Assembly (NCBI GenBank): GCA_963798085.1 | Contig: CAWCRS010000007.1 | Coordinates: 1,536,001-1,600,000, forward strand | DNA: 64,000 nt | Origin: an uncultured Gemmatimonadales bacterium | GTDB taxonomy: Bacteria > Gemmatimonadota > Gemmatimonadetes > Longimicrobiales > RSA9 | Reading direction: 5' to 3' | Shown: one piece after another, positions 1-64,000 of the stretch | Layout: the number at the start of each line of letters is the position of its first letter | Numbering within the stretch: the first letter of the stretch is position 1 | Translations under genes and position numbers: made by a program | Notes under the pieces: generated by a model | The model's database searches: none | Seen by the model: only the letters and a program-made list of their open reading frames with translations | Told to the model about the DNA's origin: nothing

Positions 1-1140
1 GCTACCGGTCCGGGCGACCTGCGCCGGCCCGGCCACGTGCAGCCGCTGCGCGCCAAGCCCGGCGGCGTGCTGCGCCGCGTGGGACAGACCGAGGCGTCCG
101 TGGACCTCGCCCGACTGGCCGGTCTGCCACCGGCCGGCGTGATCTGCGAGATCATGAACGCCGATGGCAGCATGGCGCGACGACCCGATCTCGAGGTGTT
201 CGTGCGCGAACACAACCTGCGCTTCATCACCGTGGCGCAGATCGTGGCATACCGGTTGCGCCACGAACGACTGGTGCGCCGCATCGCCGAAGCGACCCTG
301 CCCACACCATACGGTGAGTTCCGCGTGATCGCCTTCGCCAACCAGGTCGATCAGCGCGAACACGTGGCGCTCGTGAAAGGCGATATCGCCGGACAGAAGA
401 ACGTGCTCGTGCGCATGCACTCCGAGTGCATGACCGGCGATGTCTTCCACTCGCTGCGCTGCGATTGCGGCGAACAGTTGCACGCGGCCATGCGCCGCAT
501 CGATGAGGAAGGCCTGGGCGCGGTCGTGTATCTGCGCCAGGAAGGTCGCGGCATCGGCCTCGGCAACAAGATCCGCGCATACGCACTGCAGGACGCGGGT
601 CAGGACACGGTGCAGGCCAATGAATCACTCGGTTTCAAGCCCGACCTGCGCGATTACGGCATTGGCGCGCAGATCCTGCTGGATCTCGGACTCACGTCCA
701 TCCGTCAGCTCACCAACAATCCGCGCAAGATCGTGGGTCTCGAGGGCTATGGCCTGAAGGTCACGGGTCGCGAACCCATCCAGGTCGCGCCCGGCGATCA
801 CAACCGCCGCTACCTGCGCACCAAGCGCGAGAAGCTGGGACACCTGCTGCCCGACGCGTCGGCCGCCCCGGCGCCCCAGCCGGCGGCGCGCGCGCCCGAC
901 TCGCCCGCCCGCGCCGGGCGAGAGCTGAGCGATCGGAGTGGGGGAACTCCGCGGCAACCCGTCCGGCGCCGGACGGCGCTTCGCCATCATCGTCAGCCGC
1001 TTCAACGACGTGGTCACCAGCCGCCTGCTGACCGGGGCGCGCGCCTGTCTTGCCCAACACGGTGTTATGGAAGGCGACATCAATGTGATCTCCGTGCCCG
1101 GCGCGTTCGAGCTGCCGCTCGCCGCCCGGTTCGCGGCTGA
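1..1140 (+). CDS. ribBA: Bifunctional DHBP synthase / GTP cyclohydrolase II, 5'-truncated by the window edge. The true stop is probably near 928, and the 3' tail looks like a frameshift artefact.
   Basis: Motifs [14 protein letters not shown]...[38 protein letters not shown] and LTNNPRK. The ORF runs 200 nt into ribH. Confidence 0.93.
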
Positions 1141-1420
1141 CCGCGCTGTCTACGCCGCTGTTATCGCGCTGGGTTGCGTGATCGAAGGGGAGACGCGCCA
1201 CTTCGACTACGTCGCCGGTCCGGCGGCCGACGGCCTGGCGCGCGTGGCGCTGGATGCCCGGCTGCCCGTGGCGCTGGGCGTACTGACCACGACCGATCTG
1301 GAACAGGCACTGGCACGCGCGGGCGGCAGGCTCGGCAACAAGGGCTGGGATGCCGCCATGGCCGCGCTCGAACTGGCCGATCTCGCCGTGCAGCTGGGAA
1401 CGGACCGTGCGCAGCCGTAG
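938..1420 (+). CDS. ribH: 6,7-dimethyl-8-ribityllumazine synthase
   Basis: Motifs [15 protein letters not shown] and [15 protein letters not shown]; follows ribBA. Confidence 0.95.
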
Positions 1421-1844
1421 CCGCGCACGCGGGTGGGCACTGCAGATCCTCTACGCATGGGAAATGCGCGGGCCCGAGCGGCCGCTGCCCGAGGTGCTCG
1501 CCGATTTCATGACGGATCGACTGATCGGCGAAGGCAGCCGCGACTACCTGTTCCGCCTGATCCTTGCCGTTGCCGAGCATCGCGCCGACATCGATCGCAC
1601 AGTGCAGGAATGCCTGACCAACTGGCGGCTCGAGCGCCTCTCCACCATTGATCGCGCCGTGCTGCGTATTGGCGCGGCTGAAATGCTGTTCCTGCACGAT
1701 GTGCCGCCGCGCGTTTCCATACAGGAAGCTGTCCTGCTGGCCGAGAAGTACAGCACCGCCGAGAGTCCGCGGTTCGTCAATGGCGTGCTGGACGCCCTGA
1801 TGCGGCGGGCGCGCGACCCGGCCGTGCGAGGAGAGGACCGCTGA
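1407..1844 (+). CDS. nusB: Transcription antitermination factor NusB
   Basis: Motifs [29 protein letters not shown] and FVNGVLD; GTG start at 1407; ribH-nusB synteny. Confidence 0.95.
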   Translation: MRSRSRARGWALQILYAWEMRGPERPLPEVLADFMTDRLIGEGSRDYLFRLILAVAEHRADIDRTVQECLTNWRLERLSTIDRAVLRIGAAEMLFLHDVPPRVSIQEAVLLAEKYSTAESPRFVNGVLDALMRRARDPAVRGEDR

Positions 1845-3025
1845 ACATCGCTGTCATCAACTGGCAGGATCGCGAGAATCCGCAGGCCGGTGGCGCGGAG
1901 GTTCACCTGCATGAGATCTTCGGCCGGCTGGCAGCGCGCGGCCACCGCGTCACGCTGCTGGTGTCAGGCTGGAAGGGTGCACCCGCCAGCGTGCAGCTCA
2001 ATGGCATGGACGTACACCGCGCCGGGGGGCGCCACACGTTCCCGCTCGCCGCGCCGGGTGCATGGCGGAAACTGCGTCGGCGCGACTTCGACATCGTCGT
2101 CGAAGACCTCAACAAGATCCCCCTCTTCTCGCCGTGGTGGGCAGGCGCGCCGGTCGTACTCCTCGTCCATCACCTGTTCGGCCGCACGGCCTTTCAGGAA
2201 GCGGGACTCCTGGTGGCCGGCACGACCTGGCTCGCAGAGCAGCCGCTGGCCGTCATGTATCGCGGTGTGCCCGTGGAAGCCGTCTCGCAGAGCACAGCTG
2301 ACGATCTCGTGCGACGCGGTTTCAATGCCGCGCGCATCACGGTAATTCCAAATGGCGTGGCGCTCGACGCGTTCACACCGGATCCCGCCGCCCGCTTCGC
2401 CGCGCCGACGCTCCTTTACGTGGGCCGCCTGAAGCGCTACAAGGGAATAGACCTGATCCTCCAGGCTGTGGCCCGCCTGGTAGCGCAGGGCGTGCCAGTG
2501 CGCGCGATCATTGCCGGGAAAGGCGACTATGCGATGGAGCTGGAACGGTTGCGCGCGCAGCTGGGACTGCAGGACGTCGTGGAAATGACCGGCTTCGTCA
2601 CCGAGGCCGAGAAGCTGCGCCTGCTGCGGGGTACATGGGTGCATGTGCTGACCTCGCCCAAGGAGGGCTGGGGTATCACCAACCTGGAAGCCGCAGCATG
2701 CGGAACGCCCACCGTGGCGAGCGATTCCCCCGGTTTGCGAGATTCGGTCCTGCACGAGGAAACGGGCCTGCTCGTGCCGCACGGCGACGTTGCCGCGCTG
2801 GCGACCGCGCTGCAACGCATGCTGACGGATGACGTGACCCGGAAGCGCCTGGGCGAAGGCGCGCACGCTTTCGCTCAGCGATTCCACTGGGAACGGTCGG
2901 CAGAGCTGACCGAGGCACACCTTGCCGCCGTGCTCGAGGGCGCAGGCGAGGGCCAGCACCCTGGCGATTCGGCCTGGATGCCGCGTCGTGAGCAACCGGA
3001 CCAACCTTCGCACCGGAGGCAATGA
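1841..3025 (+). CDS. Glycosyltransferase family 4 (GT-B), probable CTG start
   Basis: N-terminus (M)NIAVINWQDRENPQAGGAEVHLHE is in frame upstream of the listed 1961 start; motifs YVGRLKRYKG and EGWGITNLEAAACG. Confidence 0.88.
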   Translation: MNIAVINWQDRENPQAGGAEVHLHEIFGRLAARGHRVTLLVSGWKGAPASVQLNGMDVHRAGGRHTFPLAAPGAWRKLRRRDFDIVVEDLNKIPLFSPWWAGAPVVLLVHHLFGRTAFQEAGLLVAGTTWLAEQPLAVMYRGVPVEAVSQSTADDLVRRGFNAARITVIPNGVALDAFTPDPAARFAAPTLLYVGRLKRYKGIDLILQAVARLVAQGVPVRAIIAGKGDYAMELERLRAQLGLQDVVEMTGFVTEAEKLRLLRGTWVHVLTSPKEGWGITNLEAAACGTPTVASDSPGLRDSVLHEETGLLVPHGDVAALATALQRMLTDDVTRKRLGEGAHAFAQRFHWERSAELTEAHLAAVLEGAGEGQHPGDSAWMPRREQPDQPSHRRQ

Positions 3026-3339
3026 TGGAAGTCACCATCTCCGCGATCCATTGCACCATCCCTGACTCCATGTACGATCACGCCAGCCGGCTGGGGCGCC
3101 GGTTGGATCGCTATGGCCTCAAGGCCGCTGCGGCCGCAATCACCTTTGAACCCGTGGGCGGTATCCGTACCGTGGAAGTACGCCTTTCCATTGCCGGCGG
3201 ACCTCCCTCGCTCGCACGCGGGACCGGCCCCACCTATCGCAACGCGCTCAACCAGGCCATGGATCGCATCGAGCGGCAGGTGAAACGCACGCGCGATCGG
3301 CGCCGGCACCGCCGGCGGGCTCTTACCTCCCCCGAGTGA
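3022..3339 (+). CDS. Short HPF/RaiA-family ribosome-associated protein
   Basis: About 105 aa, MEVTISAIHC...ALNQAMDRIERQVKR; sits just upstream of hprK. Confidence 0.65.
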   Translation: MMEVTISAIHCTIPDSMYDHASRLGRRLDRYGLKAAAAAITFEPVGGIRTVEVRLSIAGGPPSLARGTGPTYRNALNQAMDRIERQVKRTRDRRRHRRRALTSPE

Positions 3340-3352
3340 GCGCGAGAAAAAC

Positions 3353-4312
3353 GTGGCCACGCTGACGGTGGAAGATCTGTTCCGGGTGAAGGGCAATGTG
3401 CTGTCACTCGAGCTGCTGACGGAGGAATGCGACCTGCGTCGTCCGATTCGCGACGCGACGATATCGAATCCCGGCCTCGTGCTGGCCGGCTTCCGCGATC
3501 GTTTCCCCGGCGGCCGCATCCAGGTTCTCGGCGAAACCGAGGTCTACTACCTCCGTTCCCTCAATGAGGCGCGCCGCCGCCACGTGATCGAGGAATTCTT
3601 CGCGCTGCCCATGCCCGCCGTCGTCGTGACCAAGGGACAGGATCTGCCGGACGACTTCCTGGCCGGCGGGCGACAGCACGGCGTGCCGATTTTCCGCTCG
3701 CAGCTCAAGACGGGCGATTTCTACCGTCGCGTTCAGCCCTACCTCGAAGAACAGTTCGCGCCCACGACCACCATGCACGGCTCCCTCGCGGATGTGTACG
3801 GTGTGGGTCTGCTGTTCGTGGGACGGAGCGGCATTGGCAAGAGCGAGTGCGTGCTGGACCTCGTCGAGCGCGGGCATCGCCTGGTGGCGGACAATGTGGT
3901 GATCATTTCCCGCCGCGGCAACGACATCCTGATCGGCCGCGGCCACGAGCTGCAACGGCATCACATGGAGATCCGCGGCATCGGCATCATCGACATCCGC
4001 GCGCTTTTCGGCATCCGCGCGATTCGACAGCAGAAGCGAATCGAGGTCGTCGTCCAGCTGGTGGACTGGGACGAGCGCGCGCACTACGATCGCACCGGGC
4101 TCGAACTGGAAACGGTCGACATTCTCAATGTCGGTGTACCCAAGGTGATGATCCCGCTGAACGCGGGGAAGAACATCACGGTGATCTCCGAGGTCATTGC
4201 GATGAACCACCTGCTGAAATACTCGGGCGTGCATTCAGCGCGTCGCTTCAACGAGAGTCTCCAGGAGGCGATGAAGCCAATGCGGCAGTACCTGGAGGAG
4301 GACTATGAGTGA
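3353..4312 (+). CDS. hprK: HPr kinase/phosphorylase
   Basis: Walker A GRSGIGKSE, LVERGHRLVAD(N), MEIRGIGII. Confidence 0.96.
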   Translation: MATLTVEDLFRVKGNVLSLELLTEECDLRRPIRDATISNPGLVLAGFRDRFPGGRIQVLGETEVYYLRSLNEARRRHVIEEFFALPMPAVVVTKGQDLPDDFLAGGRQHGVPIFRSQLKTGDFYRRVQPYLEEQFAPTTTMHGSLADVYGVGLLFVGRSGIGKSECVLDLVERGHRLVADNVVIISRRGNDILIGRGHELQRHHMEIRGIGIIDIRALFGIRAIRQQKRIEVVVQLVDWDERAHYDRTGLELETVDILNVGVPKVMIPLNAGKNITVISEVIAMNHLLKYSGVHSARRFNESLQEAMKPMRQYLEEDYE

Positions 4313-6598: not shown

Positions 6599-6882
6599 CC
6601 ACAGTGCAGCCAGCCGAAGTGCGCCGTACCGTGCGCGTACCGAATCGCTACGGGCTGCATGCGCGGCCCGCGGCCGAATTCGTGAAGATCGCGACCCGCT
6701 TCCATAGCGAGGTATACGTCGGGAAGGAAGATCTGGAGGTCAACGGCAAGAGCATTATGGGCATGATGATGCTGGCTGCGGAGTTCGGCAGCGAGATCGT
6801 CATCCGCGCGACCGGAGAGGACGCACAGGACGCAGTGTCCGCTCTGGTCGCATTGGTGGAACGCGGTTTCGGCGAGGATTGA
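6595..6882 (+). CDS. ptsH: Phosphocarrier protein HPr
   Basis: GTG at 6595; GLHARPA (His15) and NGKSIMG (Ser46). Confidence 0.95.
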   Translation: MTTVQPAEVRRTVRVPNRYGLHARPAAEFVKIATRFHSEVYVGKEDLEVNGKSIMGMMMLAAEFGSEIVIRATGEDAQDAVSALVALVERGFGED

Positions 6883-6883
6883 C

Positions 6884-9407: not shown

Positions 9408-9408
9408 A

Positions 9409-12682: not shown

Positions 12683-12805
12683 AGCGGGACACAGGCCGAT
12701 GCTGAGAATGCGGGCCACGAACGCCTGCGCCCGACCGGACGCAGGAGCCGACAGGCACGCGCGGGACCTGAATCAAATGCGACTAGCTGCTTCAGGCACA
12801 TACTC

Positions 12806-16343: not shown

Positions 16344-19300
16344 GTGCGCGTGAGTCACCTGACCAACGCGTTTCATCAGGAGAGTTGGCTGTTGCGCCTG
16401 CACAGGTCCTCCTCGCCCGCTCCGCCCGCTGATCCGCTGCTCCCGAAGACTCCGCCTGCGAACGTCGAAGCTCCGCCGGTCGGCCCGCTTGGCGGTGAAT
16501 TGCTGGGCGTCGATCAGCTGGGTGAGCGTGCCCGCGTGCTCGCCCGCGCACAAGTGCTCGCGACCGGTCGTCCGCGGCAGCGACATGCGCCTCTGCTGGC
16601 GCGCCTGGATCAGACCCGAGGCATTCTCGCCGCGGCCGAGGTTCAGCTCGCTGATGCCGCGGCGCGGGATGTCAATGTCGGCCCGGCAGGCGCCTGGCTG
16701 CTCGACAACTATCACATCGTGCAGGAACACATGCGCGAAGTGCGGCAGAGCCTGCCGCGCGGCTACTACAACGAGCTGCCGCAGCTGGCGTCGGGGCGCC
16801 TGGCCGGCTATCCGCGCGTGTACGACCTGGCGATCACGCTGATCTCGCACACGGAAGCGCGCATCGATCTCGACAACGTGGACCTGTTCATCGGCGCGTT
16901 TCAGTCGGAGCAGGCACTTTCGATCGGTGAGCTGTGGGCGATTCCGGCAATGATGCGGCTCGGGCTCATCGAAAGCGTGCGTCGCATGACGCTGCGCACA
17001 GTCGAGCGGCTCGTGCAGATCGAGGATGCCGATCGGCGCGGCGCACACATCCTGGACGCCACCGAGCACCACGGACTCGAGCTGGCCGCCGCATTGCGCG
17101 AGTTCATGAGCGATCCGCCGCGGCTCACCGCTACGTTCGTCTCCCGGTTCCTCTACGCATTGCGCGAAAGCCGCGCCGCGCACCCTTCGCTGATCACGCT
17201 CGAGCAGTGGATAGGCGACGAAGGACTGGGCGCCGAGCCCGCCAGCATCCAGTCGACGAGTCGTGTCGCCCTGACGCACATCATGATGGCGAACAGCATC
17301 ACGAGTCTGCGCGCCATCGGTCGTCTCGACTGGAAGGTCTTCGTGGAGCGGCAGAGCAGACTCGACGCTGTGCTGCGCAAGGACCCGGCACAGTACTACA
17401 CCCGCATGACGTTCGGAACGCGCGATCACTATCGCCACGTGGTCGAACGCCTGGCCCGGCGCACGCGACTGCCGGAGACAGTCGTTGCGAGCCATGCGGT
17501 CGCACTCGCGTCACGCGCTGAAATGCGGGACCACACGACACACGTGGGCTTCTTCCTCATCGATGACGGGCTGCCGGAGCTGGAACGGGCGTGTGGCTTC
17601 CACGCCACCGGCAGCGAGGCACTGCACCGGTTCGTGCTGCACTACCCGGGCATCGCCTTCAGCAGCGCCATCGCCGTTGTGACCGCCGCCATCCTGGTTG
17701 CACTCTGGAGCGTCGCCGGGCCGATGCCCATCGCGGCACAGATCGCAGCGACCATCCTGCTGCTCCTGCCCGCGCTCAATGTTGCGATCCATCTCGTGCA
17801 TCAGTTGTTCTCCGTGTTTCTGCCACCCCGGCTGCTGCCCAAACTCGATCTGCGCGCGCCGCGCGGGATTCCTTCCGAGTTCCGGACCGCAGTCGTGATT
17901 CCCACGCTGTTCGCCGACGTCGCCGCAGTTGCGGAAGCACTGGAAATCATCGAAGCGCAATTCCTGGCCAACCGCGATGCGCATCTGCATTTCGCTGTGC
18001 TCAGCGACTTCACGGACGCCAGCAGTGCGACGCGTGCGGACAATGAAGAGATCCTGAACGCCGCTGTGCTCGGCATCACCGAGCTGAACGCACGCTATGC
18101 CCCGGACACGGCGGACGCCTTCTTTCTCTTTCACCGGCCGCGGCGCTGGAATGCCAGTCAGGGCGAGTGGATGGGGTGGGAACGCAAGCGCGGCAAGCTC
18201 GCCGAATTCAATCACTACCTGCGCGGCGGTGCACGCGACGCGTTTTCCACGGTTGTGGGCAGGACTGCGGCGCTGGAACAGGTCCGTTATGTGATCACTC
18301 TCGATGCCGACACGGTCCTGCCGCCGGATGCCGCACCGCTGCTGGTGGGAGCCCTGGCGCATCCGCTCAATCGCGCTGTGTACGACGCTGTTCGCGCCCG
18401 CGTCGTCCGCGGCTTCGGTATTCTCCAGCCTCGCGTCGGCGTGTCACTGCCGAGCGCGTACCGCTCGCGTTTCGCCATCATCAATTCCGGACATCCCGGT
18501 GTGGATCCCTATACGACCGCAGTCTCCGACGTATATCAGGACCTGTTCGGGGAGGGCAGCTTCACCGGAAAAGGGATTTACGATGTCAATGCGTTCGAGC
18601 GGGCAACGTATGGACGCTTCCCGGAGAACAAGCTGCTGTCGCACGATCTGATCGAGGGCAGTTACGCGCGGGCCGGGCTGGTGACGGACATCATTGTGTA
18701 CGACGATTATCCTACGCACTACCTGACGTACACCCGCCGCAAGCACCGCTGGATCCGTGGCGACTGGCAGCTGCTGGATTGGCTGACACCAACAGTGGCC
18801 GGGCCCGACGGTCCGGAGCCCAACCGCCTTTCCCTGCTGTCCCGCTGGAAGATTCTCGACAATCTGCGCCGCAGCACGGTCGAGATTGCACAGCTCGCGC
18901 TACTGGTTGGCGGCTGGACCCTGCTGCCGGCGTCGGCGCTGGCCTTCACGGCGCTCGCGCTGGGCGCGATTGCGGCTCCCTGGCTGGCTGCGCTGCTGCT
19001 CGCTTCATTGCGACCGCCGCTCGACAAGTCCTGGGCCGCCTACTATTCGGCGGTCGGGCGGGACGCACGCACCAGTGCGCAACAGGTTCTCCTGACGCTG
19101 GCGTTTCTGCCGCACCAGGCCTGCATCTCGTTCGACGCCATCGCGCGGACGCTCTGGCGCATCTTCGTCAGCCGGCGGCACCTGCTCGAGTGGCAGACCG
19201 CATCGCGTACCGAGCTTCTGCTCGCAGGGCCGCGCTCACCGTGGAAGGCAATGGCACCCGGGCTGGTGTCCGCACTGACCGCGGCGGGCCTGGTGGCGGC

Positions 19301-22300
19301 GACGGCAATGCTCAGGAGTTCCGCCGCGCTTGCACCCGTGATCGCTTCAGCCCCGTTCATTGTGCTTTGGCTGGCCGCGCCGGTGCTGGCGGGCGCGCTC
19401 AGCAGGGCACCGGCGCGACAGACCCGCGAGCTGGCGGCGCATGCACGAGCCCGGGCACTGCGTTATGCACTGCTGCACTGGCGCTTCTTCGATCGGTTCG
19501 TGGGGCGGAATACGAACGGGCTGGTACCGGACAACTACCAGGAAGACCCCGTACCCGCCACGGCGCTCCGTACATCGCCGACCAACATCGGGTTGCAGCT
19601 CCTGTCCACCGTCAGTGCCTGCGACCTCGGCTTCATTACAGTCGAGGAAATGACGGGGCGCATCGAGCTGGTCTTTCGTGCGCTCGAACGGATGGATCGC
19701 TTTCGCGGCCATTTCTACAACTGGTATGACCTCGAGAATCTGCGCGTGCTCGATCCCGGTTACATCTCGACCGTGGACAGCGGCAACCTCGCGGGTCACC
19801 TGATCGCGCTGCGCCAGGCGTTGCTCGCCATTCGACAGCAGCCTGCGGCGTCGCGCAACTGGCGTGCGCTCGATACCGGCCTCGAGCTGGCCTGCGAACG
19901 CCTGCAGGAGCTCCCCACGTCGGGCATCACCGCTGCACCGCATGCGTGGCAGGCGGTGCGCACGGCGCGCGCCCATGTGCAGCGCGCCCGCATGGCGCTG
20001 GCAGACGCCGCACGATCGACCTCGATCGCCTCATCCCTCGCCAGCATCGCCGCCATGCTGCACGCCGCGCAGGACGCCCTCAGCGCGACCACGGAATGGC
20101 CCGCCCTCGAGGAGCGCGCGCGCGAATGGATCAGCTGGAGCATGGAACGCGTCACCGCGCACACGAACGGGCCGCCTGCGGTTGCTGCCCAGCTCGAGGC
20201 ACTGGCGGACCGCGCCTATGCCTGCGCGATCGAAATGGACTTTGCGTTCCTGTCTGATGCCAGCCGCAAGCTGTTTGCCATTGGGTACCACCCCGACACG
20301 CATGCGCGTGACGCTTCGTACTACGATCTGCTCGCGTCCGAAGCCCGCCTGGCCAGCTTCATCGCCATTGCCAAACACAATGTTCCTGTCGAGCACTGGT
20401 TCCATCTGGGTCGGACGCTGACGCACGCCGCCGGCGCGACCGCGCTGGTTTCATGGAGCGGCAGCATGTTCGAGTATCTGATGCCGGCACTGGTGATGCG
20501 ATTCTGGCCGTTGACGCTGCTGGATCAGACGTACCGTGGCGCGGTGCACCGGCAGATCGCGTATGGCCGCAGGCGGGGTGTGCCCTGGGGCACGAGCGAG
20601 AGCGCGTACGCCGTGCGCGACCGGCATGCGACGTATCAGTATCGTGCTTTTGGTGTGCCCGACCTGGGCCTCAAGCATGGACTCGACCGTGAACTGGTGA
20701 TCGCACCCTACGCTTCCGTGCTGGCACTCATGGTCGAGCCGGGGCGGGCCATTGCCAATCTGAGCACGCTCGAGAAGCTGGGGGCGCTGGGCCCGTACGG
20801 CTTCCGCGATGCACTCGATTTCACGCGCGCACCCGCCGGCGCCCGCTACGTGATCGTCCGCACCTTCATGGCGCATCATATCGGCATGAGCCTCGTTTCC
20901 CTGACTAACACGCTGCTTCCAGAGCTCTGGCCCGGCCGATTCCATGCAGACCCAATGGTGCGCTCCGCTGAGCTGCTGCTGTATGAGCGTATTCCGCGCC
21001 GACTCGTGCTGCAGGGAGCGACGACTTCCGCCTCGACCGAAGTCATGCCGGAACCCGGCGCGGACAGTCCCAGTGTGCGCGAATTCACGTCGCCCGACAC
21101 GGTACAGCCGCACATCGCACTGCTGGGCCAGCTTCCGTATACCATCATGGTCAGCCACTGCGGTGGCGGGTACAGCCGGTTCGAAGACCTTGCGGTTACA
21201 CGCTGGCGCTCCAATGCGACTACCGACAACACGGGACAGTTCTGCTACATCAAGGATCTGCGTCGGGGACACGTCTGGTCCGCGGCGCATCAGCCGGTCT
21301 GCGTGAAGGCCGACGAGTATCGAGCCCTGTTTGCGACCGATCGCGTCACCTTCCACCGCGTCAATGCGGACATCGAGACCCGGACGGAGATCGCCATCGT
21401 ACCGGAGGACTCGGCTGAAGTGCGCCGCGTCACCGTCACCAACCATGGCCATGAGTCACGCGAGGTGGAGCTGACCAGCTACGGTGAAGTGGTACTGGCT
21501 CCACCCGCCGCCGAGCGCGTGCACCCTGCCTTCGCCAACCTGTTCGTGAGCACCGAATTCCACGAGTGGTGCAGCGCGATCACGGCCACCCGCCGGCCAC
21601 GCTCGGCAGAGGAGCGCTCGCTGGTCTGCGTCCACGTGGTTGCCACTGGCAACGAGCGTCTTGGCAGTGTGACATGCGAGACGGATCGTGCGCGATTTCT
21701 CGGGCGCGGGCGAACCACGCGTGACCCGCTCGCGCTCGAGGTCGATGGCGCGCTCTCCGGCACGACGGGTGCCGTGCTCGATCCCATCTTCGCTCTGCGC
21801 ACGCGCGTTCGCGTGGGTCCGGGAAAGTCTGCCGCCGTCGCCTTCACAACGCTGGTGGCGGTGACGCGCAAGCGCGCGTTCGAGCTGGCTGACCGCTACC
21901 ACACACTGCACGCGGCCCAGCGCGCGCTGGACCTGACCTGGACCGCGACGCAGGTCGAACTGCGTGAACTCAACATATCACCCGCCAATGCAACCATATT
22001 CCAGGAGCTGGCCGGTCACCTGCTCTACACGGGCGAGGGGCTCGGCCCGGCGGCGCGCGATCGTGCGGACAGTCCGGGTACCCAGCCGCTGCTCTGGTCG
22101 ACAGGTATTTCAGGGGACCTGCCCATCCTGCTGGCGTCCGTCGACTCGCCGGACGCAATACCGACGCTGCGGCAGATCTTCTCGGCGCACCATTACTGGC
22201 GGCGGCGTGGACTGCACATCAATGTGGTCGTGCTCAACAATCAGGCGACGACGTATCTGCATGAACTCGACGACCTCATCATGGCCACACTCGCCGCGTC

Positions 22301-25108
22301 CACCAATGCGGGCGTGGTCGATCAGCCGGGCGGTGTCTTCCTCAGGAGGCGGGACATTGTCGGGCCCGATGTACTACGGCTGCTCAAGGCGATCGCTCGC
22401 GTGCAGGTTCAATGCGACGGACAGTCGCTCGCAGACATTCTGCAATCCGCACTCATCCTGCCCGCGCCGCGGCCCGCCCATGGCGAAGCCTCGCCTGCGC
22501 ACGGCGCTGCCAGGCTCCAGGAGCTGCCAATCGGCAATGGACATTACGACGCTCCTCCTGTTGCACGTGATGGAGCCAGGCAAGGAGAAGGCTTGCCCGT
22601 TCCGCCGTACAGCGCTGCTGCCGTCGCGTTCGCCGCGAACGAGCCGCACCCGCTGCTTTTCGACAACGGCATTGGCGGCGTTGGCGCGAAGGGCGACTAC
22701 CACATGCGGGTGCACGTCGATTCACTTCCACCCGCGCCGTGGTCGAATGTCATCGCCAACCCGCACGGAGGCTTTCTGGTTACCGAGCGCGGCGCCGGGT
22801 TCACGTGGGCAGCGAACAGTTACTTCTATCGACTGACGCCCTGGCACAACGACCCGGTCAGTGATCCGCCCGGCGATGCGCTCTACCTGCAGGATGAAGA
22901 AACCGGTTCGCTCTGGAGCCCGACACCCGCGCCGGCCGGCAGTGGTCTGAACTACGCGGTTCGACACGGGCCAGGCTCGTCTTCATTCGAGCATACATTC
23001 GAGCACATCCGCACCGTGCTGACCATGAGCATGGTGGATGGCGAGGCGGTTCGTGTCTCGGCACTCCGTCTATCCAACGTGGGCGAACGGACTCGCACCA
23101 TCCGGTTGACCGCGTACGCGGAGTGGACGCTGGGCGTGTTGCGCGAGCAGACACGTCACCATGTGCGCACCATCTGTCAGCCCGAACAGGGCGCGATCTA
23201 CGCCCGCAACACGTTCGATCCACAGTTCGCGGGCTGGGTCGCGTTCTGCGCGCTGAGTGAACCGGTGACGGCATACTCGGCGGATCGCCGTGAATTCCTG
23301 GGCCGCAATGGAACGGTTGTAGATCCGGCTGCGTTGCGCACGGGCCGCTTGAGCGGCGCGACCGGCCCGGGTCTGGATCCGTGCGCGGCGCTGCAGTGTT
23401 GCATTGGGCTCGGCTCCCGGAGAAGCCGTGACATGGTGGTGCTCCTCGGCGCGGCGGAGTGGGCGGCATGGCGCGGAGACGGTGCCGATGCGCGGTGCGG
23501 CCGTCGCCGGGCGGCCAGCGTGCGATCACCGTGAGGTGGCCGCATGGGGGGACCGGCTCTCCGTCATCACGGTGCGCACACCGGAGCCCGACCTTCGACG
23601 CGCTGATGAACCGATGGGCGCTGTACCAGGCGCTGGCCTGCCGCATGTGGGGCACGCACGGGCTTGTACCAGAGCAGCGGTGCCTACGGCTTTCGCGACC
23701 AGCTGCAGGATGTCATGGCCTTCGTCTATGCCGCGCCCGGCCGTCGCCCGTGCGCACATCCTGCGTGCCAGCCGCGCCAGTTCGTGGAGGGCGACGTGCA
23801 GCACTGGTGGCATCCGCAGAGCGGCCGTGGCGTGCGCACCCGCTTCTCCGACGACCTTGCCTGGCTGCCTTTCGTGGTCGGACCACTACGTCGGAGTCAC
23901 CGGCGACGCGGCGTGCTCGATGAGCCGGTGCCCTTCTTACCATGCGCGTGCTCCAGCCCGGCGAGCAGGAAGTCTACGACTGCCACCGCTCGGTCGAGAT
24001 CGGGAGCGTGTACGAGCACTGCCTGCGGGCTCTGCGACCGCGCGTGCACGCAGGGAGCCACGAGCTGCCGCTGATCGGCTCGGGCGACTGGAACGACGGC
24101 ATGAACCGTGTGGGTGCGGGCGGACGGGGCGAGAGCGTCTGGCTCGGCCTGGTTCCTGTCGACGACACTGCGGGCTTCGCCTCGCATCGCGGGGCGAGCG
24201 CGATGACACACTCGGCGTCGACGCTGCTGGCGAGCGGCGGATCGGTACGCGCCGCCGTCGAAGAGCATGGCTGGGACGGTGCGTGGTACCGGCGCGCATA
24301 TTTCGATGACGGCAGTGCGCTCGGGTCAGCGCCGGGAGCGAGGAGTGCCGGATCGACGCCATCGCCCAGAGCTGGAGCGTGATCTCCGGGGGCGGACGAA
24401 CCCGAGCGGCAGCAGCAGGCGATGCGCGTCGCTCGAGGAGCATCTGGTGGACGGCGAGGCCCGCATCGTCCGCTTGCTGACGCCGCCGTTCGACAAGACG
24501 GACCGCAGGACCCGGGCTACATCAAGGGCTACCTGCCCGGGGTGCGGGAGAACGGTGCGCAGTACACGCACGCCGCGCTGTGGGCCGTGCTGGCACAGGC
24601 GGTGGCCGGGACGGCGAGCGGGCGTTGGAGCTGTTGCAGATGCTGAATCCGCTGCACCACGCTCGGCACGCGCGGCGAGGTGGCGAGCTACAAGGTGGAG
24701 CCGTACGTGGTGGCGGCGGACGTGTACACCGCGGAGGGCCAGCACAAACGAGGAGGGTGGACCTGGTACACGGGCTCGGCCAGCTGGATCTACCGGATCG
24801 GACTGGAGTCGATCCTCGGATTCGTCAAGCGCGGCTCTTCACTCGTCATCACTCCGTCCGTGCCCGCTGCATGGCGGGAGTACCGCATCGAGTACCGTTA
24901 CGGCCGCAGCACGTACGACATCGTGGTGGCGAGCGCGCCTGACGTGGAGGTGACGACGACCGAACTCGACGGCGTTGCGCTCGAAGACAATAACGTTGAG
25001 CTCGTCGATGACGGACAACTCCACACCGTCCGAATCAGCCGAGCCTCCGCAGACGCACGGGAGCCGGGCGGCCGCGCGCTTCCCGGCGTTCAGGCTTCGC
25101 GGTGTTGA
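16344..25108 (+). CDS. Cyclic beta-1,2-glucan synthase (Cgs/NdvB/ChvB-like; GT84 plus GH94 phosphorylase), with several frameshifts between about 23400 and 24700
   Basis: Motifs WLLDN, GWERKRGK, VITLDADT, SHDLIEG, HRWIRGDWQ, YYDLLASEAR and SWSGSMFEY. GH94 pieces YQSSGAYGFRDQLQD, GDWNDGMN, GVRENGAQYTHAA and GGWTWYTGSA lie in successive frames. Confidence 0.9.
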
Positions 25109-27306: not shown

Positions 27307-29134
27307 TTACGGCGTCGCCTGATCCTCCAGCTGCCAGGCAATGCCCCACGCGCCCGGACCGAGGTGCGTCGCGATCACAGGTGTTGCCGGCACATCGATG
27401 ATGTCGCGCTCGCCCCAGCGCCGGCGCAACGCGCTGGACAGTTCTTCGACGATCTCCGGCCGGCCTACGTGCATGATGCCGAAGCGCAAGGCACGCGCCC
27501 CCACCGGTACCTGACGCTCCAGCAGATCCAGCATGCGGCCGGGCACGTTGCTGCTGCCGCGCACGTTGGCAAGTGGACCGACCCGGCCGTCCGGCGTGAG
27601 GGCGAGGATCGGTTTGATATCGAACAGACCCGCGATCATCACCTTGCCGCGGCCAACGCGGCCCGAGGCCAGCAGGTTGTCGAAGACGTCCACTGTGAAC
27701 AGGGTCCCGGACTGGGTACGGATGCGCGTCAGCTCGCGCTCGATCTCCTCCACCGGCATGCCCGATTCCGCCAGCTCGGCCGCGCGCAGTGCCAGCAAAC
27801 CCTGCGTCAGGCCGGCCGCGCGCGAATCGAACAACCGGAGGGATACGCCTTCGGCACGACGGGCCGCCGCCTCCGCCGAGGCGAAAGTGCCGGACAGGTT
27901 GGCGCCGACCAGGATGGCGAGCACCGACTCGCCGTCCGCCGCGGCTCGCCGGAATCCCTCCAGGAAGGATGCCGGAGCGGGCTGCGAGGTGGTGGCGCGC
28001 TCGCCCCCCTTCAGGCGCTCGGCGAAGCGCGCCGCGTCAATGTCCGCGCCGTCCATTAACACTTCGTTATCGAACACCACGAGCATGGGCACCACATGCA
28101 TGCCGTGGGCGCGCACGACCTCGTCCGGCAGATTGCAGGCGCTGTCCACGAGGATGCTGACCGGGCGCCGCGCCAGCTCAATGTGCGCGCCCGCCGCACG
28201 CTCCACTACGGCGTGCTGTACGGCCATGTCCTCGGCCTTGTGCGTGACCAGTCGACCTACGCTGCGCAGCCAGTCGAAGATGGCCTCCGGCGCATCCGTG
28301 TGAATGTGCACCTTGAGCACGTCGTCGCCACGGATCACGATCAGCGAATCGCCGCGCGCCCGCAGTGCTTCCCGCGCGGCATCAGCGCTGGGCAGCGTGG
28401 CGCCGCGCACCAGTGCCTCGGTGCAGAAGCGATAGCGCTCACTGGCGAGGGGATAGTCGACACGCGCCACGGCGGCCGACACGGCAGCGAAGACGGGCAC
28501 ATGCTCGAGCGCGCACGAACGGATCGCCGTGCAGATATGCGACGATACCCTCGAAGAGGTGCACGAAACCCTTGGCGCCGGCGTCGACTACTCCCGCTGC
28601 CCTCAGAATCGGCAGCAGGTCGGGTGTGCGCTCGAGCGCCGCGCGGGCGCGCGTGAGCAGCAGTTCGGTGAGGTCGATGAAGTCCTGCGTGGTGGCGGCC
28701 TGCGCTTCCTCCGCCACCTCGCGCATGACCGTGATGATCGTGCCCTCGACCGGCTTTTCCAGCGCGCGATACACGTGCTGCACGGCCGCATCCAGTGCCG
28801 CCGCGAACCCCGCGGCGTTCACGCGGTCCTGCGGGCGCACGGCCTCCGCAAAGCCGAGCAGGAAGTGGGAGAGGATCATGCCGCAGTTGCCGCGTGCACC
28901 CATGATCGCGGCGTCCGCCGCATGGTGCGCGATCACGTGCAGCGATGGTTCTTGCAGCGAGCGCAGCGCATCGGCGATGGCCGAAGCGGTGAGGGCGAGG
29001 TTGGTGCCGGTATCGCCGTCGGGTACAGGGAAGACGTTGATGCGATTCAACTCGGCGCGCTGCGCCTGCACATAGTCGCAGCCGGCAATCAGCGACCGCC
29101 GCAGGCTCTCGCCGTCGAGGTACTCGATGCGCAT
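27307..29134 (-). CDS. DAK2 (FakA-like) - DegV (FakB-like) fusion, with one frameshift near 28513
   Basis: INVFPVPDGDTGTN, GARGNCG, VDAGAKG, then KVHIHT, TTSQP, LLASGRVG and HLGPGA in the next frame. Confidence 0.85.
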
Positions 29135-31193: not shown

Positions 31194-31292
31194 GGGGGCG
31201 GAGCCGTCCTGGTGGGCGGAGCGGTCTTCAAAACCGTCCTGGCCCGGGCTGACACCCGGGTTGGTGGGTTCGATTCCCACACGTCCCCGCCA
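31194..31292 (+). tRNA. selC: tRNA-Sec (UCA)
   Basis: Anticodon loop CTTCAAA, long variable arm CCCGGG/CCCGGG, extended acceptor stem, GCCA 3' end. Confidence 0.93.
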
Positions 31293-56561: not shown

Positions 56562-56576
56562 GAATCCTCATTTTTC

Positions 56577-58458: not shown

Positions 58459-58465
58459 GCGCCGG

Positions 58466-60625
58466 GTGACGGGGCTCACCGAGCGCATGGTAGCGTGGCT
58501 GCGCGATGAGGCGACGCATCCGGTGCGCCTTGCCGAGCTCGCCCGCGCACTGCGCGTGCAGCCCTCCGAACGAAAACCTTTCCGCCGCGCGCTTCGCCGC
58601 CTGATCACGGAAGGTGAAGTCTACCGCGTGCACGGCGATCGCTATGCCGTGCCCGGCCGCCTGCGTCTGATCAGCGGACTGCTCCGGGCGACGCGTCGCA
58701 ACTTCGGCATCGTCACGTCAGACGAGACCGGCGAGGAGCTGGTGATTCCGGCGAGCGCGCTCGCTGGTGCCGTGGGCGGCGATCGGGTAGTGGCGCGGGT
58801 GGAAGGCACAGCCCGGCGAGGCCGCACGGAGGGGCGCGTGATCCGCGTGCTCGAGCGCGGCCGCCAGACTGTGGTCGGACGCTTTCAGCCAGGTCGCACG
58901 CGCGGCAGCAGCATTGGTTTCGTCGTACCGGAGATGCCGGCGCTGATCCCACACGTCATCGTGGCTGCCGAGGACGCGGCCGGCGCGGTGGCAGGCGACA
59001 TCGTGCAGGTACGGGTGACCGACTGGGGCGAGGAGGGCCGCGCACCCACCGGCGCGGTGCAGCGTGTACTCGGTGCGTCCGACGCGCCCGGTGTCGATAT
59101 CCTCGCCATCGCGCTCGGTCACGAGCTGCCGATGGAATTCCCGGAACCTGCACTGGAACTGGCACAACGACTGCGCGAGCGCGGCATTCGGCCGCGTGAT
59201 CTGAAGGACCGCGAGGATCTGCGCGCATTGCACGTCGTCACAATCGATCCAGTCAATGCCAGGGATCACGACGACGCACTTTCCGTCGTTCCGCTCGGCG
59301 CCGGGACCTTCGAAGTGGGCGTACATATCGCCAATGTTTCGTACTACGTGCGCACGAATTCGCCGCTGGACAAGGAAGCGCTGCAGCGAGGCACGAGCGT
59401 GTATCTGGTGGACCGCGCGATCCCCATGCTGCCGGAGGCACTGTCATCGGACCTGTGCTCGCTGGTGCCCGATCAGGACCGCCTCACGCTGAGCGTCTTT
59501 CTCACGGTGAACACGGAAGGCCAGGTGCGCTCGATGCGGCTGGCGCAGGGCGTGATCCGCAGTCGCCATCGCCTGACTTACGATACCGTGCAGGCCGTGT
59601 TCGATGGACGGGATCGCATCGATGCCGAAACGGATCCGGTGCTGGAGCAGCTGCGCACGGTCAGCCGGCAGCTGCGGGCGCGGCGCGTCGCGCGCGGCAG
59701 CCTGGATTTCGATCTGCCGGAAGCGCGTGTCTTCCTGGACGAATCCGGCGTGCCTGTGGATGTGCAGCGAGCCGAGCGCTGGGAAAGCCACCGTCTGGTG
59801 GAAGAGCTGATGCTGGCGGCGAACGAGGCGATTGGCGGTCAGGCGACGAAGTCCGGGTACCCGTTCATCTACCGTGTTCACGAAGCGCCGGACGAAAGCC
59901 GGATGTTGCAGTTGACCGTGTATGCGCGCGCGCTCGGCTTCCAGGTGCCATTCCGGGGGCAACCACAACCCGCCCAGCTGCAGCGGCTGCTGGAGCAGAA
60001 GCCCGGCACGCCCGCCGCGCAACTGCTCGCGAGTCTGACGCTGCGCTCCATGAAGCAGGCGCGCTATCATGAGGCGGACGTCGGCCATTTCGGCCTGGCG
60101 ACGCACGACTACACGCATTTCACTTCTCCCATCCGGCGCTATCCGGATCTGCTGGTGCACCGGCTGGTGGCGGCGCATCATCTGGGCAGGGGCAGCGCCG
60201 AGCGCTACGAGGGCGAACGGGTGCGCGCGATTGCGCGCACGTCGAGTGAGCGCGAGCGCGTGGCCGCGGCGGCGGAACGCGACAGCATCGCGCTCAAGAA
60301 GGCGCGCTTCATGGCGGGCCATCTGGGTGCGACGTTCGAGGGCACCGTCAGCGACGTGCGTTCCTTCGGGGTCTTCGTTCGTCTCGATACGTACTTCATC
60401 GAAGGGCTGATCCATGTCAGCTCCCTCGGCGACGATTACTATGTCTGGGTCGAGGAACGCTTCCTGCTGACAGGGGAGCACACTGGACGCCGCTTCCAGG
60501 TGGGCCAGCGGTTGCAGGTGCAGGTGTCGAACGTCGATATGGAAGAGCGACGTATCGACTTCGTGCTCGCCCGAGAGCGCGATGCACTTCGCCGCGGCAG
60601 GCCACGGAGGAAGCGCCGGCAATGA
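58466..60625 (+). CDS. rnr: Ribonuclease R
   Basis: Motifs TIDPV(N)ARDHDDA, RGTSVY and HFTSPIRRYPD; S1 domain. Confidence 0.95.
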   Translation: MTGLTERMVAWLRDEATHPVRLAELARALRVQPSERKPFRRALRRLITEGEVYRVHGDRYAVPGRLRLISGLLRATRRNFGIVTSDETGEELVIPASALAGAVGGDRVVARVEGTARRGRTEGRVIRVLERGRQTVVGRFQPGRTRGSSIGFVVPEMPALIPHVIVAAEDAAGAVAGDIVQVRVTDWGEEGRAPTGAVQRVLGASDAPGVDILAIALGHELPMEFPEPALELAQRLRERGIRPRDLKDREDLRALHVVTIDPVNARDHDDALSVVPLGAGTFEVGVHIANVSYYVRTNSPLDKEALQRGTSVYLVDRAIPMLPEALSSDLCSLVPDQDRLTLSVFLTVNTEGQVRSMRLAQGVIRSRHRLTYDTVQAVFDGRDRIDAETDPVLEQLRTVSRQLRARRVARGSLDFDLPEARVFLDESGVPVDVQRAERWESHRLVEELMLAANEAIGGQATKSGYPFIYRVHEAPDESRMLQLTVYARALGFQVPFRGQPQPAQLQRLLEQKPGTPAAQLLASLTLRSMKQARYHEADVGHFGLATHDYTHFTSPIRRYPDLLVHRLVAAHHLGRGSAERYEGERVRAIARTSSERERVAAAAERDSIALKKARFMAGHLGATFEGTVSDVRSFGVFVRLDTYFIEGLIHVSSLGDDYYVWVEERFLLTGEHTGRRFQVGQRLQVQVSNVDMEERRIDFVLARERDALRRGRPRRKRRQ

Positions 60626-60704
60626 GTGTCGTTTGACACTTTCCTCCGGGCGCGGCTACTTTTTGCCGCCACCCGGTTCACTGCAACAAGTTGGTCCCGC
60701 TGCC

Positions 60705-61716
60705 ATGGGCGCTCGAAAGGTACTGGTCTACTTCTCTCCGGGAGGCCGTCCCATTCCGCCCGTGCTCCTGGCGTTTGCCCAGCTCCAGGGCCTGGACATG
60801 ATGGCGCTGAACGACCCGGAACAGGTCGAAGCGCTGGTCAACCGGTCCCTGCCCGCCGGCGTCATCCTCGACACCATGAGCGAAGACGCGGCGCTGACGA
60901 TCTGCCGCAAGTTGAAGCGCGACCCGTTCACGGCCATTGTGCCCGTGGCGCTCGTGGCGCAGCCGGGCCGCGAAGATCTGGTGCTGAGCGGCCTGGAGGC
61001 GGGGGCCGACGAAGTGCTCACGGGCGGAATGGTGGAGCGCGAGCAGATTCTGCGGCTGCGCATGGTGCTGCACCGCGCGGACCGCGATGTCAGCGTGCAC
61101 CCCACTACGCGACTGCCCGGGACCATTCAGATCGAGCGCGACATCGCCGAGCGGATGAAGCGCGGCGGCATGTTCGCGGTCTGCTACGCGGACCTCGATC
61201 ATTTCAAGGAATTCAACGACCGGTACGGCTACAACGAAGGGGATCGCGTAATCCGCGTCCTCGCACGCATACTTCGGGATGTGGTGCGCGGTCATTCCCC
61301 GGAAGGATTCGTGGGCCATATCGGAGGCGACGATTTCATTTTCAATGTGCCACTCGAGCGCATGCGCATTCTGCTGCGAAGAGATCATCGAGATCTTCGA
61401 CGAGATCATTCCGTTCCAGTACACGGAAGAAGACCGCCGCGCGGGCTACTTCCTGGGGCGTGATCGTCGCGGCAACATCGTGTGGGTGCCGCTCATGACG
61501 CTGTCCATCGGGGTCGTGACGAACGAGCACCGGCGCTTCGAGCACACCGCCCGTGTGAGCGAGCTGGCCACCGAGATGAAGACGTTCGCCAAGAAGCTTC
61601 CCGGATCCGTGTACGCAGTCGACCGTCGTACCACGACCGGGGGTACATACTACGGCAGGAACATCAGCTCAACCGGCGAACTCGAAGCCTTCGAAGCGAC
61701 CACCGACCTCCCATGA
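60705..61716 (+). CDS. Receiver-like plus GGDEF domain protein, with a frameshift near 61369
   Basis: GLEAGADE, DLDHFKEFNDRYG..EGD and GHIGGDDF, continuing as PLMTLSIGVV. Confidence 0.82.
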
Positions 61717-62318
61717 ATATCCGTTGTCCGCAATGCCAGACCGTGTTTCGCGTGGACCCGTCGCGGATCCCCCCCGACGGTGCCAAGGCGAAATGCGCGC
61801 GGTGTGGCGCGAAGTTCGTCGTGCGCCCGCCGTCCGCGAACGAAGCGGCCGCCGCGCATGCCGCAGCCCCGCATCCACCACACACGACATCCACGCATGC
61901 GCACGCAGGCGCTCCGGGTTCGCCCGGCCCGATGCGCACATCGCCGTCGGCCTCGCCGGTTGCCCCCGCTGCGACAGCGCCGCCATTGATGGCAGCCAGC
62001 GCCAGCGCAGCACCGGCAGCCGTGGCCGAGCGCGCGACGCGCCCTGTGACAGCCCCGCCAGGCACACCCGGCGCCCGCGATCCCAACGTGCGCGCCGAAC
62101 GGCTGGCGCGCGCCCTGGTCTCCGACATCGTCGCGTATCACCCCGAACGCCGCGACCGCAGCCTCGCCGACGGCACGCTGCGCACCGAGTTCCGCGATGA
62201 GATCATGAAGAGCTGGGACGAATACGTCGCCCAGGTCGGCTCGACCGTGGCCAAGTCCACGCCCTTCTTCCGCGATGCCCTCAACAAGATCCTGGCCAAG
62301 GGGCAGAACGTCTTTTGA
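61713..62318 (+). CDS. MJ0042-type zinc-ribbon protein with an Ala/Pro linker and a helical C-terminal domain
   Basis: MNIRCPQCQTVFRVD...KCARCGAKF; RAERLARALVSDIVAY. Confidence 0.8.
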   Translation: MNIRCPQCQTVFRVDPSRIPPDGAKAKCARCGAKFVVRPPSANEAAAAHAAAPHPPHTTSTHAHAGAPGSPGPMRTSPSASPVAPAATAPPLMAASASAAPAAVAERATRPVTAPPGTPGARDPNVRAERLARALVSDIVAYHPERRDRSLADGTLRTEFRDEIMKSWDEYVAQVGSTVAKSTPFFRDALNKILAKGQNVF

Positions 62319-62324
62319 CGGACA

Positions 62325-62720
62325 GTTGCCGGGGCTGGGGCTCGGGCTGGTTGCCGAGGAACGGCGTGACGGATTCGGGCGTTGCTGGCGCTGGAGAACG
62401 GATCCGGACTCAACTGGGCTGCTGGCCGGGCGATGACGCACGGAGTCCGCTCCGGGATGGGGATTGCGCACAGAACGCAGCGCCGTGTTAGTGCTGTCCT
62501 GACGCTCAGACCGCCCGCCGCGAGGATGGGGACCCTAACGTTGAGCTAGACGGGAGGCCGCCAGGACACGCCAGCCCGTGAATCGGGATCCGTTCCCGGG
62601 CAACCAGCCCGGGCCCCAGCCCCGCCAACGCCTCGAATCCGTTCCCGCCGTTCCCCAGCAACCAGCCCCAGCCAACCAGCTCCGGCAACGCCTCGCATCG
62701 GTTCTGCGCCGTTTCCCGGC
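62325..62720. repeat. Intergenic array of a ~58-61-bp unit in inverted and tandem orientation
   Basis: 62325-62364 is nearly the reverse complement of 62590-62629; tandem copies start at 62590, 62648 and about 62709. Confidence 0.8.
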
Positions 62721-62835
62721 CCAGGTGCACAGGCCGCGCCCCAGCAGCGCAGTTCGAGCCGAAACGTGAACCCCACACACGGGTAGACAGGCGGGGCCGT
62801 CCGATCGGGCGGCGCAGCTCTTCCAGGGAGAGGCA

Positions 62836-63946
62836 ATGGGCACGGAGACGGGGAACGTCCTGCAACCCGAGCGCGAGCGGCTGCATGCGCTCGGAGGCTA
62901 TCTTTGACGTTGCGAACAGGCGAGTTCGCATCGCGGCGCTGGATGCGCGCATGGCGGAGCCCGGGTTCTGGGATGATCCGGCAGGCGCGCGGGATGTGAT
63001 CAGCGAGTCCAAGGCGCTGAAGGCGTGGGTCGAGCCGTGGGATGAGCTGGCAGCGAAGGTGGATGAACTGGAAGAGCTGGCGGCGCTGCTGGAGAGCGAT
63101 CCCGACCCGGACGTGGAAAGCGACTGGCAGAGCGAACTGGAGCGGCTGCGCGACGCCATCGACCGGCTGGAGGTGCGCGCGCTGCTCAGGGGCCCTGACG
63201 ATGCCCGTGACGCGATTCTCACGGTGCACCCGGGCGCCGGCGGCACCGAGTCCCAGGACTGGGCCGAGATGCTGGTGCGCATGTACAGCCGCTGGGCGGA
63301 CCGGCACGGCTTCGAAGTGGAGGTGCTCGACCTGCAGGCGGGTGAAGAAGCGGGCATCAAGAGCGCTTCGTTGGAAATCCGCGGCACCTACGCATTCGGC
63401 TACCTGAAGTCGGAGAAGGGCGTGCACCGCCTGGTGCGCATTTCGCCTTTCGACGCGCAGAAACGGCGGCACACGTCATTTGCCAGCGTGTTCGTCTATC
63501 CGGTGGTCGATGACACCATCGACATCAAGATCGAAGAGAAGGATCTGCGCGTGGACACCTTCCGTGCGTCGGGGGCGGGCGGGCAGCACGTCAACAAGAC
63601 GAGCTCGGCCGTGCGCATAACGCATCTTCCCAGCGGCATCGTGGTGCAGTGCCAGAACGAGCGCAGCCAGTTCCAGAACAAGGCGACGGCGATGAAGATG
63701 CTGCGCGCCGAGCTGTACCAGGCGGAGCGCGACCGGCAGGATGCGGAGCGCCAGAAGCTGGAGGATGAGAAGACGGAGATCGCGTGGGGTAATCAGATCC
63801 GGTCCTATGTGTTCCAGCCGTACACGATGGTGAACGATCATCGCACCGAGTTGAAGATCGCCGATGTACAACGTGTGATGGATGGCGACCTGGATGGGTT
63901 CATTGAGGCGTTTCTGAAACAGCATGCCCACCGCGGCGCGGCGTGA
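62836..63946 (+). CDS. prfB: Peptide chain release factor 2 with a programmed +1 frameshift
   Basis: ATG at 62836; GGAGG-CTAT-CTT-TGA-C at 62893-62908; SPF and GGQ motifs. Confidence 0.97.
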
Positions 63947-64000
63947 TGGGGACGAAAATGGAAGAGACGGTCGGCTATGTGCGGCAGGATCGGCTGGAGA
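63946..64000 (+). CDS. Start of the next gene, possibly lysyl-tRNA synthetase
   Basis: ATG overlaps the prfB stop; product guessed only from common prfB-lysS synteny. Confidence 0.3.
   Translation, partial: MGTKMEETVGYVRQDRLE

Follow-up and report, generated by a model that had tools for sequence, protein, structure and literature searches.

The stretch of DNA analysed here (the window, 64,000 nucleotides) lies on contig C7 of G000, the assembled genome of an uncultured Gemmatimonadales bacterium (6.23 Mb in 12 contigs, 90% complete, with a single rRNA operon); the names of its homologues assign the lineage to Longimicrobiales, Gemmatimonadota. On the contig plus strand, across positions 1..64000, the word CGATG is in part read as CAATG, as the k-mer counts of the window indicate (CAATG 101 and CATTG 80; CGATG 122 and CATCG 155). 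Within genes the change makes conserved aspartate residues appear as asparagine. It is seen, always on the plus strand, in HprK (LVAD[N], altered residue bracketed; position 3893), in SelB (VVAA[N]EG, 11063), in the cyclic β-1,2-glucan synthase Cgs (GIYDV[N]AF, 18588) and twice in RNase R (59255 and 59333), as well as in the 16S (47738) and 23S (51321) rRNA genes. A preliminary description of the window listed ten sites, all of which carry exactly the letters given there, and took the changes to be miscalls at a modified base.

At each of these positions relatives carry Asp or G. The HprK site is Asp in a relative and a miscall by its motif, SelB has Asp in relatives, the solved Cgs chains 8rf9 and 8rf0 read DVDAF, and both RNase R sites are Asp in the relatives G001 and G010. 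The 16S site is G in 7/7 relatives and the 23S site is G in G010 (121 nt, 99% identical). A further CAATG in the 23S gene (50621-50625) is CGACG in G010, and an additional miscall at 50622 is likely. DegV (DSAC[N]LP, 28134, minus strand), which had been counted among the errors, falls outside the pattern: it is a genuine Asn in CAATC context, and DSACNLP is also found in G001 and G010, with Asp in G006, so that two of three relatives share the Asn. A candidate false stop at 55231 (plus strand), where CAATG gives CAT TGA on the minus strand, fits the motif and lies upstream of, and in frame with, the open reading frame (ORF) 53768-55153; no listed piece of the independent run X1 spans this site, and no alignment to a relative was obtained there. 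Motif-derived false stops are rare genome-wide: of 59 internal TGA codons that are candidates for such stops, one is CAT TGA.

Independent evidence comes from run X1, a soil metagenome in the form of contigs (depth 2-7, library not on record) that covers 32 of the window's 64 kb. X1 differs from the window by 22 listed substitutions, 11 of which are A to G. Ten of these fall at CAATG and restore G, at the SelB site and at 2000, 3563, 4127, 11591, 17778, 52771, 53526, 54902 and 55544 (all plus strand); the other, at 12707 (plus strand), is GAATG in the window and GGATG in X1, the sole A to G change outside CGATG, yet within GATG. Neither of the two T to C changes falls at CATTG. Since position 2 of CAATG is the site of only 101 of the 10,925 A's in the window, the 10/11 agreement has a P of ~5e-20. 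Across 4,892 bases, the combined length of the 16 longest pieces listed, motif sites were changed at 6/11 on the plus strand and 0/18 on the minus strand (P 0.001). The remaining nine substitutions are scattered, which points to differences between strains or to errors in the contigs; one X1 piece contains an unlisted difference, and site 58915 is therefore not fully excluded. An extra base at GATG, in AGATG context (61369, minus strand), is missing from X1 and coincides with a +1 frameshift relative to a relative. No long near-identical pieces were found against the window in runs X2 and X3. Taken together, the apparent Asp-to-Asn changes are almost certainly errors in the assembled sequence and not mutations.

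Genome-wide, the same pattern appears as an imbalance between the strands of the contigs. On the contig plus strands of G000 there are 9,082 CAATG and 6,654 CATTG, an excess of 2,428 (z 19.4), and 13,802 CGATG and 16,122 CATCG, a deficit of 2,320 (z -13.4). These are the two largest strand asymmetries of all 5-mers, and their direction agrees on 11/12 contigs, the 8.6-kb contig giving a tie. No strand excess was seen for CGATA, CGATC, CGATT or A/G/TGATG (|z| 2.2 or less), and flanking bases up to 15 nt add no specificity. The motif had been described as of the CGAT/ATCG type; the enrichment in CGATG bears this out in part, but CGATA, CGATC and CGATT show no strand excess and the motif is exactly CGATG. 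The word itself is not avoided in the genome (observed/expected, O/E, 1.02-1.10).

Protein comparison with G001 and G010 (342 alignments out of 690 kb sampled) leads to the same result. Where a conserved Asp codon GAT is preceded by C and followed by G, it is read AAT at 31/173 sites in plus strand genes, compared with 43/1,391 control sites in plus strand genes (P 2e-12), an enrichment that supports miscalling at a modified base as first proposed. In minus strand genes the rate is 9/190, not different from that of the controls (P 0.42), which overall lie at 2-6%. The antisense change is the mirror image: Ser to Leu at TCG codons preceded by CA occurs at 7/27 sites in minus strand genes and 1/36 in plus strand genes. 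In a gene-strand-aware test CGATG ranked first of 256. The change is thus nearly confined to the contig plus strand, a point absent from the preliminary description. The bias tracks the strand of the contig and not that of the gene and, as a cell cannot know the orientation of a contig, this shows that the change is a consensus artefact. There are at least ~2,400 false substitutions genome-wide, affecting ~15% of plus strand motifs.

One-base insertions give an indication of the modified word. Among testable GAATG sites in G000, 48/2,467 mark a +1 frameshift, compared with 55/16,165 controls, and the extra letter is an A, placed at the A of GATG. Each of the four 5' bases shows a raised rate (A 19/520, C 14/791, G 9/744, T 6/412), and these insertions have no contig-strand bias. 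No enrichment of +1 frameshifts was seen at CAATC, the equivalent word for the CATC strand (4/1,670). Of the +1 junctions relative to relatives, 7/22 contain GAATG or CATTC, as counted by eye. Because the insertions follow all four 5' bases, the modified word is likely to be GATG, with CGATG as the substitution motif. The preliminary description suggested 5-methylcytosine (5mC), N4-methylcytosine (4mC) or a modified G; the evidence leans instead to N6-methyladenine (m6A) beside the misread G, and that a modification is involved at all is likely. It is probable, with some room for doubt, that m6A is present in GATG or CGATG.

The distribution of the imbalance was then compared with gene content, using forward and reverse counts of CAATGT in 523 distinct Gemmatimonadota genomes. 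A genome was called positive at a CAATGT forward excess of z >= 4; z was computed for all 201 genomes of the order, and in the phylum table 37 selected genomes were treated in this way and the remainder judged by eye. Genomes with 40 contigs or fewer (few-contig genomes) served as a proxy for sequencing platform. The gene of interest encodes P0001, a predicted adenine methyltransferase; by our own count 110/523 genomes carry a close orthologue of P0001 (E no higher than 1e-50). The unpublished genomes G014, G060, G063, G065, G066, G136, G262, G344 and G363 enter only negative or orthologue tallies and one neighbourhood comparison, and no positive claim is built on them. Twelve of the 523 genomes are positive (G000, G010, G027, G028, G029, G030, G045, G055, G245, G428, G429 and G434). 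They span three families, all have 40 contigs or fewer, and all 12 carry a close P0001 orthologue, while none of the 413 genomes without one is positive; among these non-carriers are 33 that are known to be few-contig genomes (0/33 positive). The 193 negative genomes of the order have a mean z of 0.06 (SD 1.0, maximum 2.6). A matching CGATGT deficit is present in 11/12 positives, G027 being without it, and CGATG ranked first of 256 in samples of G010 and G434. Samples of G528 and G026 showed no clear bias at any motif. Within the family of G000 all 8/8 few-contig carriers are positive, the sole few-contig non-carrier, G026, is negative, and no family genome with 100 or more contigs has the signal. 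Across few-contig genomes 12/27 carriers are positive against 0/33 non-carriers (P 1e-5, a value that is overstated because kin are not independent).

The preliminary description had seen no methyltransferase in the window; the candidate writer sits on another contig (G000:C5:177724-178785, plus strand). P0001 is 354 amino acids long and matches PF02086 with 94 bits against a cut-off of 22, placing it among the D12/alpha-class N6-adenine methyltransferases. The frame is intact and the protein has a single domain, with motif I (DPFCG) at 30 and DPPY at 225, the latter being invariant across 63 homologues. P0001 occurs, with identities of at least 51%, in 63/73 family genomes, and is surrounded by housekeeping genes (KdtA-like, acyltransferase, DUF423, TonB and IF-3). 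PADLOC matched none of its five flanking ORFs in G000, a search for adjacent partners only, and 0/38 ORFs within ~1.5 kb of the P0001 orthologue in 11 positive genomes. P0001 is therefore an orphan, with no adjacent restriction enzyme or second methylase. The best annotated homologues are 36% identical, those across plasmid and phage collections 30-36%, and PDB sequence and profile searches returned no relative. On the strength of the co-occurrence, P0001 is quite likely to be the writer, and is a candidate that probably has m6A activity on GATG or CGATG.

The literature surveyed holds no report of a P0001-type enzyme or a CGATG/GATG motif in Gemmatimonadota, REBASE and supplements, which may hold the motif, being outside its scope. 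The Gemmatirosa methylome comprises RGATCY, ATGCAC and CCAGN7TCA only (PMC3974934). The available text on two marine Gemmatimonadetes metagenome-assembled genomes gives neither motif nor methylase gene (PMC8919816), and the portions at hand of PMC13340088, PMC9426454 and 10.64898/2026.06.24.734251 offer nothing further for motif or enzyme. The 5-methylcytosine motif CATCGATG, as described in the accessible part of 10.1101/2024.07.15.603628, does not match, being a longer word and a palindrome.

On balance, the CGATG errors are best accounted for by nanopore misreading of native m6A in GATG, with the lineage-conserved orphan P0001 as its probable source; that a DNA modification of some kind is the cause can be said with considerably greater confidence. 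G000 appears to be a nanopore assembly because of its contiguity and the type of error. In the proposed sequence of events, the starting point is the observed set of consensus errors, nearly all on the contig plus strand. Reads of the modified strand would give A for the G that precedes the modified A and reads of the other strand would be correct, by analogy with the published behaviour of R10.4.1 reads. The consensus would then resolve this split to A over G but to C over T, perhaps through a tie-break or a weighting of forward reads. The modified word would be GATG, the substitution surfacing only in CGATG, and P0001, to judge from its co-occurrence, would write the mark on its own, as a solitary methylase whose target word is not palindromic.

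Several observations weigh against this interpretation. Among the few-contig carriers 14/27 lack the signal (11 of one genus together with G517, G241 and G398) and G310 is borderline; outside the family, the few-contig carriers comprise 4/19 positives, one borderline case and 14 negatives, and positives and negatives are intermixed in the P0001 tree. A different platform or polishing could explain the negative few-contig carriers, contig number being a proxy for the platforms of G000 and of the compared genomes. Only a single few-contig family member is without P0001. The insertion signal amounts to 1/250 sites in four positive relatives (200-400 kb samples), too few to judge. With its depth of 2-7 and 11 other substitutions, X1 includes strain differences. 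More generally, the argument rests on contigs, in which the contig-strand bias is an indirect sign of a strand-specific mismatch in the reads, and the modification itself is inferred.

G000 has several other methylases that could be considered as writers: a Type III Mod/Res pair, a Type IIG-like enzyme, a C5 methylase accompanied by Vsr and an EcoRII-like nuclease, a broken Type I system and an EcoRI-type methylase. The same artefact could be produced by the Type IIG-like Eco57I-domain methyltransferase (1,129 amino acids), which lies beside an SNF2 helicase at G000:C1:262737-269680 (L040:7738-14681) and is a second lineage-conserved methylase. It competes with P0001 in being family-wide, present in 53/66 family genomes including all seven other positives and in 0/134 genomes of two sister families; it has homologues in G245, G429, G434 and G310, and IIG enzymes methylate one strand, as stated in the available text of PMC12898733. 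Yet its frame is open in the signal-negative G026 (8 contigs), it was not found in the positive G428 (92% complete), and identities of 33-41% in the other positives outside the family make a kept specificity less likely. This enzyme is an unlikely writer.

It is equally unlikely that another gene, one that co-occurs with P0001, makes a different modification, either a cytosine mark in CATC (4mC or 5mC) or a modified G. The identity of the modified base is deduced, and kin share so many genes that co-occurrence cannot single out one; moreover, the look-up for dpd covered G000. Against this, the inserted base is the A of GATG and the CATC strand counterpart shows no enrichment, a PF01555 N4/N6 enzyme is missing from 6/7 positive relatives, and the C5 methylase (PF00145) was found in 0/4 positive relatives tested. 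G000 has one TGT-family match (PF01702) at E up to 0.1, although a divergent DpdA could be missed and the genome is 90% complete. Words derived from CCWGG are without strand bias, and the C5 methylase of C11 was rejected as the writer on this ground as well. That gene, fused to a helix-turn-helix domain, lies on the smallest contig (8.6 kb; L024:1517-4544) together with genes for Vsr and an EcoRII-C nuclease.

It is very improbable that the basecaller or polisher makes a context-dependent error at CGATG that is unmodified. A background A/G confusion bias does persist in amplified, unmethylated DNA, according to the accessible part of bioRxiv 10.64898/2026.01.14.699587, and one pipeline could be common to all positives. 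Against this, the signal is present in 12/27 few-contig carriers and 0/33 non-carriers (P 1e-5, kin not independent), and G026 has ample CGATG yet no bias.

The intact Type III pair on C8 has a still smaller chance of being the writer. Asymmetric 5-bp motifs with m6A on one strand are typical of Type III systems, and both Mod (633 amino acids, with DPPY) and Res are intact. However, the Mod is found in 0/66 other family genomes, including the seven other positives, PF01555 is present in 1/7 of these, and 19 genomes of the order with Type III homologues have no CAATGT excess, so that co-occurrence largely refutes it as the shared writer. A SoFic gene and a DrmD-like helicase lie upstream of the pair (G000:C8, L023:6244-15440). 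A bipartite Type I motif was likewise discarded, since flanking sequence out to 15 nt had no effect and the Type I locus is fragmented; at that locus (G000:C3, L025:7422-13480) HsdM and HsdR are spread over several frames, through decay or assembly indels. The EcoRI-type methylase (C1:477877) was set aside because it looks mobile, with 76-89% identity to many unnamed proteins, those with names coming from unrelated taxa. There is next to no probability that the changes are real mutations, caused by a deaminase specific to the motif or by a methylated base that mutates readily: X1 could be another strain, but the change follows contig orientation on 11/12 contigs irrespective of gene strand and local GC skew, affects conserved rRNA and protein positions, and is absent from family genomes with 100 or more contigs.

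Some further features of G000 were recorded. The Cgs ORF (window 16344-23534) encodes 2,396 amino acids compared with ~2,800 in solved homologues, and a frameshift error may cut it. The DAK2/DegV protein (window 27307-28500, minus strand) has matches in three relatives (L194, L195 and L196), each with one in-frame TGA; G000 encodes SelB and a tRNA-Sec (31194-31288), and the TGA may reflect a gene boundary or selenocysteine. A repeat of ~100 bases (window 62325-62395 and 62589-62693) has ~90 matches across the genome, often as inverted pairs. GAGCTC (O/E 0.34) and AAGCTT (0.44) are strongly under-represented genome-wide, possibly through restriction-site avoidance.

The errors have practical consequences. 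The ~2,400 or more false substitutions (~1 per 2.6 kb), together with some false frameshifts, stand in a species-representative genome and touch the single 16S gene it has; the bias is shared by 11 further representative genomes. Such errors make active sites look dead and lengthen branches artificially. If nanopore misreading of m6A from P0001 is the correct explanation, the k-mer imbalance is a read-free way of linking methylases to motifs across uncultured lineages; the strand-imbalance test is nearly free and applicable to any long-read genome collection. Should P0001 be the writer, then a conserved orphan methylase acts on an asymmetric target in a large uncultured clade, and there is one clonable 354-residue enzyme with one clear prediction.

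The error class is already known; the new elements are the proof from contig strand and the co-occurrence across 523 genomes. In R10.4.1 reads, according to the available text of PMC11610603, modifications cause G to be miscalled as A on one strand, the read covering the G is the wrong one, and the errors enter assemblies and are removed by amplification; modification-linked nanopore errors also appear in the accessible parts of PMC10687267 and bioRxiv 10.64898/2026.01.14.699587. The CGATG errors resemble these G2A/C2T errors in being motif-bound G-to-A changes that survive into the consensus at some sites. They differ in that G2A and C2T both dominate those assemblies, in the portion of the report at hand, whereas in G000 one contig strand is clearly affected, and this one-strand effect makes the motif detectable from the assembly alone. 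Neither CGATG nor GATG was found in the available portions of PMC11610603 and PMC10687267. The finding works like Hammerhead-type strand errors, an artefact of known class carrying real information.

With respect to the enzyme, P0001 and M.FokI, whose N-terminal domain recognises GGATG (available text of PMC3985630), both belong to PF02086. P0001 is ~30% identical to genes annotated fokIM and to genes annotated 'ulcer associated adenine specific DNA methyltransferase', and, over its N-terminal half, a PADLOC Type II model of 646 positions matches P0001. Unlike M.FokI, it has no second domain for the other strand and no restriction enzyme beside it. MhoVII of Mycoplasma hominis, which according to the accessible text of PMC12898733 gave in 2026 the first experimental proof of the GATG/CATC motif, with m6A and in a restriction system, shares with P0001 a non-palindromic 4-bp word and a D12 domain. 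That text describes it as a fused two-domain methylase together with a separate restriction enzyme, present in 27% of isolates, in contrast to the single D12 domain, absence of a nearby nuclease and family-wide conservation of P0001. It also weighs against the assignment made here that the D12 domain of MhoVII methylates CATC and its beta-class domain GATG (PMC12898733, available part); family membership thus lends the word plausibility, but does not decide which strand P0001 would mark. As a single 354-residue domain with no adjacent nuclease, P0001 does not have the make-up of a Type IIS restriction-modification system of the FokI or MhoVII type, and, as the likely writer, it resembles their methylases in family and target without being a member of those systems.

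Dam (GATC) and CcrM (GANTC) are lineage-conserved orphan adenine methylases with palindromic targets. P0001 reaches 26.5 bits against the TIGR00571 dam model (cut-off 114.85), and CGATC has no strand bias, which is not a test of GATC methylation itself. The target of P0001 is non-palindromic, unlike those of Dam and CcrM, but like them P0001 is solitary, chromosomal, clade-wide and situated among housekeeping genes, with CGATG not avoided. It may be, and we put this forward tentatively, that several Gemmatimonadota families have vertically kept a solitary adenine methylase of a single domain that marks one strand of the asymmetric word GATG, a Dam/CcrM-like epigenetic mark without a restriction partner that can be read from public assemblies as a forward/reverse k-mer imbalance.

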